64,000 nt of DNA from Isurus oxyrinchus (lineage: Eukaryota), in assembly GCA_026770705.1 (NCBI GenBank), contig JANJGN010000023.1, positions 4,526,001 through 4,590,000 on the forward strand, written 5' to 3'. Shown here piece after piece: positions 3,988 to 63,670 of the stretch. The translations under genes were made by a program, and so were the position numbers. The notes under the pieces are model-generated. The model searched no databases, was not told the origin of the DNA, and saw nothing but the letters and a program-made list of their open reading frames with translations. The stretch's first letter is position 1, and each line of letters starts with the position of its first letter.

Positions 3988-4530
3988 AGTGGCAGTGGCT
4001 TAGCGGTATTGTCTCTGGACTAGTGTTCCAGAGATCCAGGGTAATGTTCTGGAGATAAAAGCAAAATACTGCGGATGCTGGAAATCTGAAACAAAAACAG
4101 AAAATGCTGGAAAAACTCCAACAGGTCGAGCAACATGTGTGGGGATAGAAACAGAGACTGTTCCAGAAGAGAAGCAGAAACTGCTTCTCTCTCCATAGGT
4201 GCTGCTAGACCTGTTGAGTTTTTCCAGCATTTTCTGTTTTTGTTGTTAATGTTCTGGGGACCTGGGTTCAAATTCCACCAAGGCCGATGGTGAAATTTGA
4301 ATTTAATAAAAATCTGGAATTTAAAGTCTGATGATGACCAAGAAACCATTGTTGTAAAAACCCATCAGGGTCACTATTGCCTTAAGGGAAGAAAACCTGC
4401 CATCCTTACCTGGTCTGGCCTACATGTGACTTGAGACCCACAACAATGTGGTTGACTCTTAAATGCCCTCTGAACAAGGGCAATTAGGGATGGGCACTGG
4501 ACTTCCCAGTGGCGCCCACATCTCAAAAAA
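3988..4530 (+). mobile_element. tRNA-headed SINE with LINE-derived 3' tail
   Basis: A box tggcttagcgg (~3995), B box ggttcaaattcc (~4265), tail caagggcaattagggatgggca shared with the LINE at 4605-7422. Confidence 0.8.
4053..4246 (-). mobile_element. Penelope-type inverted-repeat short insertion (older copy)
   Basis: Imperfect palindrome flanked by 11-bp TSD taatgttctgg (4042-4052 / 4247-4257). Confidence 0.8.
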
Positions 4531-41029: not shown

Positions 41030-43050
41030 TTTAAAGGCTGATGATTAACTTGTTTCGCCACGGCATGTACACACCTTCGGTGGCCATCAATCCTGTGGGA
41101 CTTGAACCCAGAACCTCTAGCCCAGAGCTAGAGGCACTACCACTGTGCCACAACACCTCCTAAATTTAATTCCCTGACTGCCCAAAAATCTATTGACCTC
41201 TATCTTGAATGTCCTCAACCATTGCGCATCCACAGCTGTCAGGGGTAAAGAATTCCAAAGACTCAACTTCTGAGTGAAGAAATTTCTCCTCCTCAGCCCG
41301 TTAGGTTCTACATAATTGTAATGAATTGCAAGTCTTTCATTCCTTGGTATTGTATAGTCACAAGAGTAAAAAAAATTGCAGGAGTAAGCAATTTGACGCT
41401 GCTCTACAATTTTAATATGATCGTGAAGGATAGTGCAGATCGGTGCACTCTTTCCACGCCCCACTCCCCCCCCCCCCCCCCACCCCCACCCCCGCCCCAA
41501 TGCTATTCCTGCATCCTTTACTTCCCTTGGAAACAAATCTATGGATCTGTCATGAACATACTCAGTGACTGAGCACCCACAGCTTTCTGGGGTAGAGAAT
41601 TCCAACAATCACAACACTTTTGAGTGAAGAAATTTTTCCTCATCTCAGCTCTAAATGGCCAACTCCTTATTCTGAGATTGTGACACTTTCAAAAGCAACT
41701 TATAACATTATTTAGGGTAGATAAATATGTACCAATTAAATCACCTCTTACATCTTCTAAATTTCAGACTATAGTTCTAGTGCGACTTGACTGTAACATA
41801 TGAAATCCTGAGGGGTCTTGACAGGGTGGATGTGGAAAGGATGTTTCCTCTGGTGGGAGAATTTAGAATTTGGGATCAGTTTAAAAATAAGGGGTCACCC
41901 ACTTAAGACAGAAGGAGGAGAAATTTTTTCTCTGAGGATCCTGAGTCTTTGGAACTCTTCCTCAAGACGGTGGAGGCAGAGTCTTTGAATATTTTTAGGG
42001 CAGAGGTGGGTAGATTTTTGGTTACAAGGGGTTGAAAGGTTATTGGGAGTAGCCAGGAAAGTGGAGTTGCAGTTAAAATCAGATTAGCCATGATCTCATT
42101 GAATGGCGGAGCAAGCCTACTCCTGCTCCTAATTCACATGTTTATATATATGCTCATATGTAAATGCACAGTCTCTTCTCATAGGACAATCCCCTCATGT
42201 CAGTCATCAATTTAGCAAACTTTTGTTGCATTCTCTCCAAGGGTAGTATATTCTTCCTTAGGTAAGGATTCAAAAACTGCACACAATTTACGAGCACGGG
42301 CAATCAAGGCTGTTTGGAATTGTAGTAAGACCACACTTAAACTCCAACCCTTTTGTAATAAAAATTGCATTTTGTAGCTGCTTGTTTTTCTAATTTATTT
42401 GTTCACAGGATGTGGGTGTTGCTGCCAAGGCCAGCATGTTTTAACCATGCTTAATTGCCCTCGGAGGTGGTGGTTAGCCTTCTCGAACCACTGCAGTCCA
42501 TGTAATGTAAGTACACCCACAGTGCTGCTAGGGAGTTCCTGGATTTTGACCCAGTGACAGCGAAGATTAGCAATATAATTCCAAGTCAGGATGGTGTGTG
42601 ACTAGCTTGGAAACACCACCACCTGCAAGTTCCCCTCAATCTGCTGCCCTTGTCCTTCTAGTTGGTAGAGGTCACAGTTTTGGAAGGTGTTATCAAAGAA
42701 GCCTTGGTAACTGGCTGCAGTGCATCTTGTAGATGGTATATACTGCTGACATTGTTCATCAGTGGTGGAGGGAGTGAATGTTTCAGGTGGTGGATGGGGT
42801 GCCAGTCAAGCAGGCTACTTTGTCTGGGATGGTGTCGAGCTTCTTGAGTGTTGTTGGAGCTGCACTCATCCAGGTAAATGGAGAGTATCCCATTGCATTC
42901 CTGACTTGTGCCTTGTCGATGTTGGACAGGCTTTGGAGAGTCAGGTGGTGGGTTACTCGCTGCAGGATTCCTAGCTTCTGGCCTGCTCTTGTAGCCACAA
43001 TATTTAAATGGCTAGTCCAGTTCAGTTTCTGGTCAAATGGTAACCTCCAA
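41030..43050. mobile_element. Cluster of SINE and LINE 3' fragments in both orientations
   Basis: tRNA-like head on minus ~41050-41160; CR1 tails minus ~41165-41760; CR1 tail plus ~41790-42145; LINE minus ~42395-43050 (DQKLNWTSHLNIVATRAGQ). Confidence 0.7.
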
Positions 43051-43569: not shown

Positions 43570-45715
43570 GATTTCCCACAATGTGCTAGCCAGAAAAATG
43601 CATCTACCCTGCTAAGCCCCGTAAGAATTTTGTAACTTTCAATGAATTCACCACTCATTCTTTGAAACTCTGGAGAATCTAGGCCCAGTCTCCTCAATCT
43701 CTCCTCATAGGAGGATCCTGCCATCCCTGGAATCAGTCTGGTAAACCTTTGTTGCATTCAGTCTAAGGGAAATATATTCTTCCACAGGTAAGGAGACCAA
43801 AACTGCACGCAAAACTCCAGGTGCAGTCTCACCAAGGCTCTATACTATTGCATAAAGACTTCTTTACTCCTGTACTCAAATCCTCTTGCAATAAAGGCCA
43901 ACATACCTTTTGACTTCCTAATTGCTTGCTGCACCTGCATGTTAGCTTTCATGAACAAGGACACCCAGGTCCCTTTGGTAATCAATAGCTCTCAATCTCT
44001 CATTTAAAAAACTCTGCATTTTTGTTTTTCCTGCTGTACCCCCCTAGTCAGTGTGCCAATCTGAAGATTCATTTATTCCTACTCTATTTTCAGTCAGTTA
44101 ACCAATTTTCAATCCATACCAGTCTATTACTCTCTATTCCACATGCTCTATTTTTGTTTACTAACCTCTTGTGTGGGACCTTATCAAAAGCCTTCTGAAA
44201 ATCCAAAAACACTATATTTGCTGGTTTCTCCATCAATTCTGCTAGTTCTCAAACAACTCCAACTGGTTTGTCAAATATGATTTCCCTTTCATAAATCCAT
44301 GTCAACTCTGGCCAAACCAACATTATTTTCTAAGTCAAAAACAGAATTACCTGGAAAACCTCAGCAGGTCTGGCAGCATCGGCGGAGAAGAAAAGAGTTG
44401 ACGTTTCAAGTCCTCATGACCCTTCAACAGAACTGTTCTGTTGAAGGGTCATGAGGACTCGAAACGTCAACTCTTTTCTTCTCCGCCGATGCTGCCAGAC
44501 CTGCTGAGTTTTCCCAGGTAATTCTGTTTTTGTTTTGGATTTCCAGCATCCAGTTTTTTGTTTTTATTATTTTCTAAGTGTCCAGTTGTCACATCCTTTA
44601 TAATAGATTCTAGCATTTCCCTACTACTGATATCAAACTAACAGGTCCGTAGGTGACAGTTTTCTGTCTTCCCTCCTTTCTTAAATAGTGGGGTTATATT
44701 TTCTACCTTCCAATCTACAGGAACCATTCCAGAATCTATAGAATTTTGGAAATGACTACCAATGCATCCACTATCTCTACAGCCATCTCTTTTAACACTC
44801 TGGGATGTAGATCATCAGGTCCAGGGAATTTAGTAACTTTGTCCCATGAGTTTCTCCAGTACTTTTTTTTACTAATACTCATTATAGTTCCTTATTCTCA
44901 CTAGTCTCTTGGTTCTCTAGTATTTCAGGGAAATTTCTGTATTTTCCTCCATAAAGACAGATACAAAGTATGTTTAGTTTCTCTGCCATTATAAATTCTC
45001 CTGTCTGTAATGGGCCCATATTTGTCTTTGCTAACTCTTTCCTTTTTACATCCCTATTAGAAGCTTTTAGTCATTTTTATTTCCAGCTAGTTTACTTCCA
45101 ATTTTCCTTTTATCAGTTTTTTTGGTCCTCTTTTCTGAACTCTAAAATGCTCCCAATCTTCAAACTTACCACTTTTTTGGCCCCTTCCTTTGATCTAATG
45201 CAATCTTTAACTTCTCGTTAGCTATGATTGAATCACTTTTCCTGTTGGGTTTTTGTCCCTCAAGGGAATGTATATTTGTTGTAAGCCTTGTATTAATTCT
45301 TTAAATGCTCACCATTGCCTATTTACCATCATACCTTTTATTGGAGCTTCCCAATCTACCACAGCCAACTTGCCCCTCTCACCTTCATGGTTTCCTTTAA
45401 GACTAATTCCAGATTGAACTATATCACTTTCAAACAATGTAAAATTCTAACATATTATGGTCACTCTTCTTGAAAGGCTCCTTTACGAAGAGATTAATTA
45501 GCCCTCTCATTGCACACTACTAGATCTAAAATAGCCTGTTCTCGAGTTAGTTCCTTAGCATACTGTTCAAGAAACCACCTCATATATACATTCCAGGAAT
45601 TCATCCTGCACAGCATTAGTGCTAATTAGGTTTACCCAATCTATATGTAGATTGAAGCTACCCATGATTGGGTACCCTTGTTACATGCACCTTTAATTTC
45701 CTGATTTATACTATG
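43570..45715 (-). mobile_element. Old fragmented CR1 LINE
   Basis: QRFTRLIPGM..YEERLRRLGL; DFQKAFDKVPH-type segment ~44170-44200. Confidence 0.75.
44336..44565 (+). mobile_element. Penelope-type palindromic insertion with hammerhead-like core
   Basis: ~98-bp inverted arms centred on 44434; 14-bp TSD attattttctaagt (44322-44335 / 44566-44579). Confidence 0.88.
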
Positions 45716-52686: not shown

Positions 52687-53309
52687 CTGTGATCAGAAAG
52701 TTTGATTCATTAAACACCACATTCCAGTGATTTAAATGTGCATTACTTACAGGTATCTCTGTATTAGCTAATGGTGTTCCCAAAGTGACAGGCTGTCATT
52801 CCCAGCATATATTTTCATGATTACTGAAACTCTCATCACTTTTTTGTTACCTCTATATGTAACTATTCCAATGCACTCTTGAACAGCTCTGATGAACATA
52901 AACACCACTGGCAGTACCCAAACCACAGCCGTGAACCCCAGAAACTCAAGACCTGCACTTACACTCCACACTCAGTGGATATCCTGTTTCAATTAGCAAA
53001 GGGCTGTTCTTTGATAAACCCCAAATCAGTTCACTAAGATCAATCAACAAAACAAGATATACGCAAACTATTGGGATTTCATTTATACATGTCCGCTGAA
53101 GTTCAATGATACGGACTCAAGTCAAAAAATACTTTGGACACTCATGGGAACAGTACAGCTCATTATTTGCATGGGGGGGGCAAGTATTAAATAGATGCAA
53201 GTTTCACCAATTACCCTTAATGACGTACAGTCCCAAACAGCACAAAATGAATTGTTGGTATGGTGGTTATAGAACAGTGGTGTCCAATATTGAAGTAGTA
53301 CAGCATGGA

Positions 53310-53542
53310 AAACAAAAACAGAATTACCTGGAAAAACTCAGCAGGTCTGGCAGCATCGGCGGAGAAGAAAAGAGTTGACGTTTCGAGTCCTCATGACCCT
53401 TCGACAGAACTTCTGTCGAAGGGTCATGAGGACTCGAAACGTCAACTCTTTTCTTCTCCGCTGATGCTGCCAGACCTGCTGAGTTTTTCCAGGTAATTCT
53501 GTTTTTGTTTTGGATTTCCAGCATCTGCAGTTTTTTTGTTTT
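53310..53542 (+). mobile_element. Penelope-type palindromic insertion with hammerhead-like core
   Basis: ~100-bp near-perfect inverted arms centred on ~53410; 14-bp TSD tagtacagcatgga (53296-53309 / 53543-53556). Confidence 0.9.
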
Positions 53543-54277
53543 TAGTACAGCATGGACTTGTGTCTCAGTAGCAGACAACTCTTTGCTCCTCTGACATCTA
53601 GTGGCTGGTTACAGAACAGCAGTAGAACAGCCAGGATTGTACCTCCCAGCCAGTCACTTTCATGAGGGGAAGGCAAAAGCATTACATTTCCTTTTAATAA
53701 TGTTCACAGAATAATTGCAGTCACTCTAAGACTACATTTCTCAGTTTTGCAAATATTCACTACTGCATCCTTTAAAGGAAGGGTCACAGAAATGTAAGTC
53801 ACCAAGCATTAAAAGTACATTTCAGCTGGCCTGACCAGTAAGCCCAGGTGAGGAGTCCTCACACTGCATCAACATACCCTTTCCTTCACTGAGCAATAAA
53901 TAGCAACAACAGGCTTGTCATCATGTTCATGTGAGCAGCATGAGGCTAAGGTAGTATGTTAAAAAAAATTGAAGCTCAGACTGTTTCTCCTGAATTGAAC
54001 TCCTGGCCATTCCAAAAATGCTTCAACAAGCGCCGAGAGGCATTTTTCACACAGAAACCAAGACAGTGAGTGGCATTGTGCTATTTTATCACAGAAGGCT
54101 TCACAGCTAAGCTAATCCTAACCTCACATGAAAACATGTACCAGCAGACAGAGACACACTAAATGCAATTCTTTCTTTAAGGCTCAGAACCAAGATTCAG
54201 TTCCGTTGTTTTGTCTCTGGTACTGTAAACAGCAAAAGTGCACTGACGAACCAAAGTTAAACAGCGTTGGGACTCAC

Positions 54278-56554: not shown

Positions 56555-56690
56555 AGTCCTGTTGAAGAGTCATACGGACTCGAAATGTTAACTGTGTTCC
56601 TCTCCGCAGATGCTGTCAGACCTGCTGAGTTTTTCCAGCTATTTCTGTTTTTGTTTCAGATTTCCAGCATCCACAGTATTTTGCTTTTAT
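56555..56690 (+). mobile_element. Single-arm Penelope-type insertion starting at the hammerhead-like core
   Basis: 13-bp TSD cccagtattttcc (56542-56554 / 56691-56703). Confidence 0.85.
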
Positions 56691-63549: not shown

Positions 63550-63670
63550 CTTCAGTTTAGGTGAAAGCTCAATGGCCTGAAACTTTAGAGCTCTCCATAG
63601 ATGCGGCCTGACCTGGTGAGTATTTCCAGCATTTTCTAATTTTCTTTCAGGTCTCCAGCATTTTGCACTC
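63550..63670 (+). mobile_element. Highly degraded copy of the Penelope-type short element
   Basis: cctgaaac...ctccatagatgcggcctgacctggtgagtatttccagcatttt...ccagca. Confidence 0.55.

Follow-up and report, generated by a model that had tools for sequence, protein, structure and literature searches.

Minimal hammerhead ribozymes (min-HHRs) were reported by Cervera and de la Pena (2014, PMC4209133) from the pLTRs of metazoan Penelope-like elements (PLEs). As described in the portions of that report available to us, these motifs have no helix III beyond the palindromic 15.2 and 16.2 bases, an extra base between positions 9 and 10.1, a G10.1-C11.1 pair and a short helix I, and they occur as thousands of scattered single copies. 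They are inactive as monomers and weakly active as dimers, and the core variant named there is U3-A8. The motif described here from Isurus oxyrinchus agrees with them in its location in a pLTR, in these structural features and in its dispersal, but has an A6U change that is fixed across the family. Neither U6 core heptamer occurs in supplement file 2 of PMC4209133.

A second point of comparison is given by the endonuclease-bearing (EN+) PLEs with a CX2-5CxxC Zn-finger-like linker between the reverse transcriptase (RT) and endonuclease (EN) domains, the Neptune/Nematis type, as defined in the available part of Craig et al. (2021, PMC8557442). The Isurus element shares with them an RT in a single long frame adjoining the repeat, a C-terminal GIY-YIG, a linker of the form C-x4-C-x2-C, partial tandems of the pLTR, an inverted, 5'-truncated copy and a tail of 30-40 bases at one end only. 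It differs from them in its very many tiny head-to-head products and in its non-canonical core. In that source the role of the hammerhead in endonuclease-bearing PLEs is stated to be unclear, such that it may only ride along, and Naiads are reported to spread without canonical hammerheads.

The insertion mechanism has been studied in Poseidon PAc from the green anole (Frangieh et al. 2024, PMC11167929), the one biochemical study. In the part of it available to us, uncut RNA is the insertion template, and hammerhead catalytic mutants leave insertion in vitro unaffected, making cleavage dispensable there. Cleavage requires the protein, and none of the RNA-seq reads ends at the cut site. PAc has two internal RT start sites bounding the tail, and both target strands are cut and extended; the Isurus family resembles it in both respects, as judged from the layout of its insertions. 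In PAc the hammerhead, which is active when protein is present, overlaps the start of the ORF, whereas the long frame in Isurus begins about 170 bases downstream of C3.

Changes at core position 6 give low activity in the sources that we could consult in part (PMC3088659, PMC7151607, PMC9901934). The natural A6C hammerhead of phage Bcep176 has a kobs below 0.1 per min (Perreault 2011, PMC3088659), and A6C performs poorly in Mg2+ and well in Mn2+ (Naghdi 2020, PMC7151607). Single and double mutants of the U-turn region have low activity that is not rescued, the C3-G8 swap being the exception (PMC9901934). The Bcep176 and Isurus motifs are alike in having a natural change at position 6, but the former has C in one phage ribozyme with assayed activity, while the latter has U in about 85,000 copies and is known from sequence alone. 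General background is available in the accessible parts of PMC6765202 and PMC6155905. Our literature search found no printed account of A6U in a hammerhead catalytic core, nor one that treats Penelope and Neptune retrotransposons together in a shark genome, and the papers that mention sharks, Penelope and hammerheads, as judged by title and the start of the abstract, contained none on an A6U family. Lünse and coworkers reportedly described many PLE hammerhead variants in 2017, which may include A6U. What appears to be new here is the A6U variant of the PLE minimal hammerhead; the kind of element and its anatomy are known.

The window examined is a stretch of 64,000 nucleotides from one Isurus oxyrinchus contig (JANJGN010000023.1). 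Positions in the motif are numbered with C3 as 0, which places the predicted cut at +31 and the 4-bp stem I of the family at -4..-1 paired with +31..+34. The insertion at 53310-53542 lies between identical 14-bp target site duplications (TSDs; 53296..53309 and 53543..53556) and is a palindrome. Its inverted pLTR arm (53310..53407, minus strand) has no tail and stops at the inner RT start site, where 3' ends cluster at +96..+100; the self-match is 98.5% over 202 bases. By motif scan, this arm carries a minimal hammerhead core with A6U and an intact stem I 5' strand (53377..53407, minus). A head-to-head junction, seen in the sequence as a 5-base quasi-palindrome (53408..53412) and differing in spacing among copies, lies immediately 5' of the plus-strand core at 53413..53443. 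The latter is a minimal type I core with A6U, an extra A preceding stem II and a 5-bp stem II that includes one G-U pair, is identical to the majority sequence of the youngest subfamilies, and is predicted to be cut after 53443. It is followed on the plus strand by the stem I 3' strand and the conserved body of the pLTR, which extends to the inner RT start site (53444..53510), and then by a tail of about 35 bases (53511..53542), as tails are defined in the available parts of PMC11167929 and PMC8557442. The tail lies between the two RT start sites and occurs on the plus arm only.

A second palindrome at 44336..44565 has U6 cores at 44438-44468 (plus) and 44400-44430 (minus) by motif scan, a tail on its plus arm and a 14-bp TSD (44322-44335/44566-44579). 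Each of these two palindromes is of about 100 bp, and a transcript across either would likely form one long hairpin rather than a hammerhead. The insertion at 56555..56690 (plus) is short and solo and belongs to an older U6 subfamily; it starts exactly at -4, with its core at 56559-56589 (plus) and a 13-bp TSD (56542-56554/56691-56703). The same lineage is represented by an older palindrome at 4053..4246 (TSD 4042-4052/4247-4257), in which the arms are joined downstream of the core so that the core is absent, and there is an old, decayed copy of 74-80% identity at 63581..63661 (plus).

The original prediction listed three TSD-flanked cores, and all three are present at 53413, 44438 and 56559, each having U6, a stem II of 5 bp and the triplet GUH; the TSDs, of 13-14 bases, are real at all three insertions. 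It overlooked the minus-strand cores and thus the palindromes at 53310-53542 and 44336-44565. The stem I that it proposed exists in the family as four base pairs. In the solo copy the proposed fifth base is the last base of the TSD, and this copy also has a private mismatch in stem I; in the copy at 53413 the stem is partly there, the junction leaving just 2 bp on the plus arm. An Rfam scan of the window contained no hammerhead family in 19 matches at E<=5, and the matches over the copies were hairpin look-alikes below the gathering score. The scan also gave a tRNA-like match above the gathering score (36.3 bits) at 41088-41157 on the minus strand, which could be the head of a tRNA-derived SINE.

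Among 20 loci from a DNA search, one retained upstream sequence, and this was used as a query to obtain 30 further loci. Many of the 30 run upstream into a frame with RT and GIY-YIG motifs and a C-x4-C-x2-C linker. [quoted passage not shown] Pfam RVT_1 was above its cut-off of 29.6 in both frames searched (34.2 and 30.1 bits; E=2.8e-8). GIY-YIG was slightly below its cut-off of 22.6 (20.5 bits, E=6e-4) in the single frame that reaches this domain, and the translations have a GIY-YIG-type motif with Cys/His residues at the C-terminus. A PDB sequence search gave no matches. From its sequence, the repeat is identified as a pLTR belonging to an autonomous EN+ PLE, which its linker and domain features assign to the Neptune/Nematis type, and the three copies in the window are 5'-truncated end pieces of that pLTR. 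The Penelope-type minimal hammerhead of the original prediction is borne out, and the linked RT and GIY-YIG frame that it suggested looking for was found. The pLTR region is also present in sequencing runs of four organisms and in two metagenome runs, so that close relatives of the element exist beyond the Isurus oxyrinchus genome. Two of the loci, L059 and L060, lie about 20 kb apart on one contig; over a span of more than 9 kb that contains several Penelope copies their identity is 99.9%, which points to a recent segmental duplication or an assembly artefact.

The original prediction further proposed a non-coding family mobilised by a PLE, and this part did not hold up. Such a family, SINE- or retrozyme-like, would have its own master and be moved in trans by a Penelope protein. 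Many copies are indeed short and TSD-flanked and start near one position, and non-autonomous retrozymes derived from PLEs have been described in animals (non-LTR retrozymes; Li et al. 2026, 10.64898/2026.07.22.740005, consulted in part). These too are hammerhead-bearing, non-coding pieces, but they form head-to-tail tandem units with complete hammerheads, whereas the copies in the window are solo or head-to-head truncation products with no head-to-tail arrays. The short copies are 95-97% identical to the pLTRs of ORF-bearing copies and follow the same subfamily steps, and neither head-to-tail non-coding units nor a separate master was found. The anchor spacing across 28 palindromes ranges from 39 to 523 bases, with differing junctions; variation in junctions and arm lengths is expected if each short copy is newly made. 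We consider a self-standing family improbable, and it is already largely refuted.

To describe how short copies arise, we collected 92 arms from 70 loci, picked by exact match to an anchor that lies downstream of the ribozyme, which keeps the choice free of core bias. Their 3' ends are bimodal, with 41 at or before +105, 39 at +125..+140, three between and nine beyond, which places two 3' end sites about 36 bases apart. Among 28 head-to-head pairs, a tail was present on one arm in 26, on neither arm in two (one of them borderline) and on both arms in none, and 19 of the 28 have a TSD of 13-16 bases. This pattern of 3' ends and tails agrees with the anole element, for which two internal RT start sites and nicking of both strands are reported, and with the one-sided tail and inverted copy described in PMC8557442. 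The process may be pictured as follows. Transcription would start at about -4, so that the mRNA would begin with the hammerhead motif. The protein of the element would nick both target strands 13-16 bases apart, each nick would prime reverse transcription at one of the two internal sites, and about 100-140 bases of cDNA would be made up to the 5' end of the RNA. Joining of the two cDNAs through short homology would give a palindrome, retention of one a solo copy, and read-through of tandems the longer copies. The twin priming and the start near -4 are what we infer here; the insertion layout of inverted copy, tail and TSD is already known.

The 5' ends of the 92 arms bear on whether the template is cut. 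Copies start mostly at the motif or upstream of it. There were 35 ends at -20..+9, around the motif's 5' edge (eight of the 92 exactly at -4), and three at +34..+50, and not one of the 92 lay in the predicted cut region at +29..+33, so the templates appear to have been uncut at the ribozyme site. Ends mapped to -41 to -299 are partly alignment drop-outs within simple repeats and were left uninterpreted. A G, as a cap would leave, precedes -4 in 11 of 61 truncated copies and in none of 121 long copies, and many of the former are explained by the TSD or by junction homology; junction microhomology explains part of the 5'-end pile-up. When 30 older, A6-rich copies were read by eye, they likewise appeared not to begin at the cut site, and since these seem to start alike the 5'-end test cannot separate A6 from U6. 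It shows that cutting plays no part in templating and says nothing on whether U6 abolishes cleavage.

The A6U change is family-wide, as the original prediction had supposed from three copies. An exact 28-base core pattern searched over the whole 4.98-Gb genome gave 85,234 matches with U6, 171 with A6 and 2,118 with C or G at position 6, counted as arms and not as insertions; C accounts for 95 of the first 100 matches listed in the last class. Reversed control patterns gave no matches genome-wide, so the U6 count is far beyond chance. U6 was also found in all 66 ungapped cores among the 92 arms chosen by the downstream anchor. A looser pattern recovered 9,231 A6 cores, mainly from older relatives, and 7,607 U6 or C6 cores in which stem II is of the older form. 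Other hallmarks of the minimal type I motif, namely G12, A13 and A14, A15.1-U16.1, H17, palindromic 15.2/16.2 and the extra base before G10.1-C11.1, are all present. The canonical C3 U4 G5 A6 N7 G8 A9 is intact in the ancestral subfamilies S1-S4. Since the family itself has U in place of A6, we file it as a hammerhead descendant and not as a demonstrated ribozyme.

The subfamilies, S1 to S13, were obtained by sorting 188 long arms on upstream letters chosen by eye. A6 is present in 22 of 23 arms of S1-S4, S5 contains both letters (4 A, 11 U), and S6-S13 carry U6, apart from copies that were retrieved because they have A6, C6 or G6. Copies differ from the majority sequence of their subfamily by 10.8% in S1, dropping to 0.4-1.0% in S12-S13, values that are biased low by the choice of loci. 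A tree built from 113 of these arms, no more than 12 from any subfamily and with column 6 omitted, was a ladder in the same order, with the later A6 copies as scattered tips; its support was modest, with 19 of 103 branches starred and the A6 and U6 copies of S5 not separated. These sequences suggest that A6U likely arose once in the source lineage, with the switch within S5. Between S5/S6 and S13 the ORF changed at 15 of 170 four-fold sites and at 10 of 348 second codon positions, indicating from sequence comparison that it stayed under purifying selection in the U6 era. We considered whether the C6 copies form one single subfamily and rejected this, as C6 occurs in more than one of the subfamilies and includes at least two small groups, each with upstream letters in common. 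The oldest subfamily, S1, has a stem I mismatch that is repaired from S2 onward; its stem I 5' strand forms a perfect 4-base palindrome, on which junctions are often centred.

Our preferred reading, to which we assign a probability of roughly 0.6, is that the short insertions derive from the end repeat of an autonomous PLE in which A6U is family-wide and probably crippled self-cleavage, yet left the element able to spread because its insertion likely draws on RNA that is uncut. The original prediction left a choice between a natural variant ribozyme and spread after losing cleavage; the genome evidence favours spread after loss of most or all cleavage over a fully working variant. The element spread to tens of thousands of copies with a changed core letter, so that cutting is likely unneeded for jumping.

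Variant counts at three core positions (4, 6 and 9), made with patterns that differ slightly in length, allow some estimate of what is still selected. With changes at A9 as the background rate (410 over three substitutions, about 137 each), the 171 A6 revertants are near background, whereas C6 and U4G+U6 cores exceed it, C6 by more than tenfold. Position-4 variants number 980, and the first 100 listed comprise 62 G, 20 C and 18 A. The U4G copies group with common upstream letters, the change often being on both arms of a palindrome, which suggests a source carrying two core changes (U4G and U6) that still spread modestly. The small U4G and C6 branches could have moved in trans. As part of the preferred reading, the U-turn half of the core would have tolerated further changes after A6U, while the rest of the motif was likely kept in part, as a structure or as a signal for transcription or protein binding.

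Between S5 and S13, four of eight free positions changed, compared with one of 31 core or stem positions (Fisher P=0.004), and the one was a tolerated G-U pair. In the majority sequences from S5 to S13, G8, A9, G12-A14, the palindromic stem III bases and stems I and II are unchanged or compatibly changed. This pattern fits continued selection on the motif, and it also favours the view that U6 is a tuned-down working ribozyme, slow as a dimer or protein-bound, that removes the capped 5' 35 bases and whose residual cutting is selected. The lack of excess change at A9 is in keeping with this, as are the anole hammerhead that cleaves only with protein and the activity of A6C in Mn2+ (PMC11167929 and PMC7151607, as far as available). 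Measured against the neutral rate of the ORF, conservation of the motif is not significant (P=0.23). The A6 revertants have not expanded, whereas the U4G and U6 branch did. Over the first 47 bases the predicted stem II probability is 0.67-1.00 in S1-S9 but 0.37 in S12-S13; in these two the minimum-energy fold has a competing helix instead, favoured by about 2 kcal/mol. A lack of stem covariation was named in the original prediction as evidence against it, and that lack is partly what we saw: in 13 hand-picked aligned copies of this shallow lineage, with 94.6% of cells paired, two-sided changes occurred in none of nine pairs of stems I and II and a one-sided change in one. In dimer folds the double hammerhead was not the minimum-energy structure. 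A slow but used ribozyme is possible, and on the whole we regard it as somewhat unlikely.

Going beyond the crippled ribozyme of the preferred reading, the data would also accommodate a stepwise conversion of a catalytic RNA into a non-catalytic element. The U-turn half (positions 4 and 6) would decay in more than one of the branches that amplified. Selection would hold on to stem II, the G-A pairs and the stem I that lies at the mRNA 5' end, because these are read by the Penelope protein or the transcription machinery, and loss of cleavage would have helped the element to reach about 10^5 copies. We offer this as a speculative and rather doubtful extension.

If insertion indeed proceeds with a crippled motif, the Isurus family would mirror, in nature and in vivo, the experiment done with PAc mutants. 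It offers, within one lineage, an ordered natural series with copy numbers, from A6 to U6 with side branches C6 and U4G+U6, in which each member is a 47-base RNA that can be assayed. The open question of what the hammerhead does in these elements thereby becomes directly testable. Hammerhead searches that require A6 would miss the motif of a very abundant element.

The motif might instead never have been a working ribozyme in this lineage, even with A6, and be a relic retained as a promoter or splice sequence. The 5' starts of the older A6-rich copies, the stem I mismatch in S1 and the failure of all five folded stretches to be significantly more stable than shuffles agree with this, as does a pyrimidine run with AG before the core in the older subfamilies. 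S2-S4, however, have a complete canonical minimal core with perfect stems, and min-HHRs of metazoans cleave weakly as dimers (PMC4209133, in part). We also tried the idea of an intron ending at the AG before the core. It was unsupported: none of the 14 joints in contigs from four presumed-RNA runs was a GT..AG joint, which is a weak test, as the contigs show presence only. Altogether we judge it very improbable that the motif never worked. The pLTR is the most deeply covered region of those contigs, a depth to be read with the provisos that the runs may be DNA and that copies lie inside host transcripts.

In the older subfamilies, splice-acceptor-like sequences (a pyrimidine run with AG) occur before the core, before a second ATG and after the tail, and the second and third of these lose their AG in the young subfamilies. 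The roughly 25 bases directly upstream of the core (L057:1925-1947) changed in the source lineage from S5 to S13 far faster than the silent sites of the ORF, possibly through promoter turnover or a template switch, and by S12-S13 they had grown similar to stem II in its 3' half. In the young subfamilies (L057:1960-2120) an ATG in loop II starts a frame of 18 codons, and a second upstream ATG starts one of 10 codons. By eye, the frame from the second ATG seems to be about 30 codons long in the older subfamilies, in frame with the main ORF and ended by one stop.
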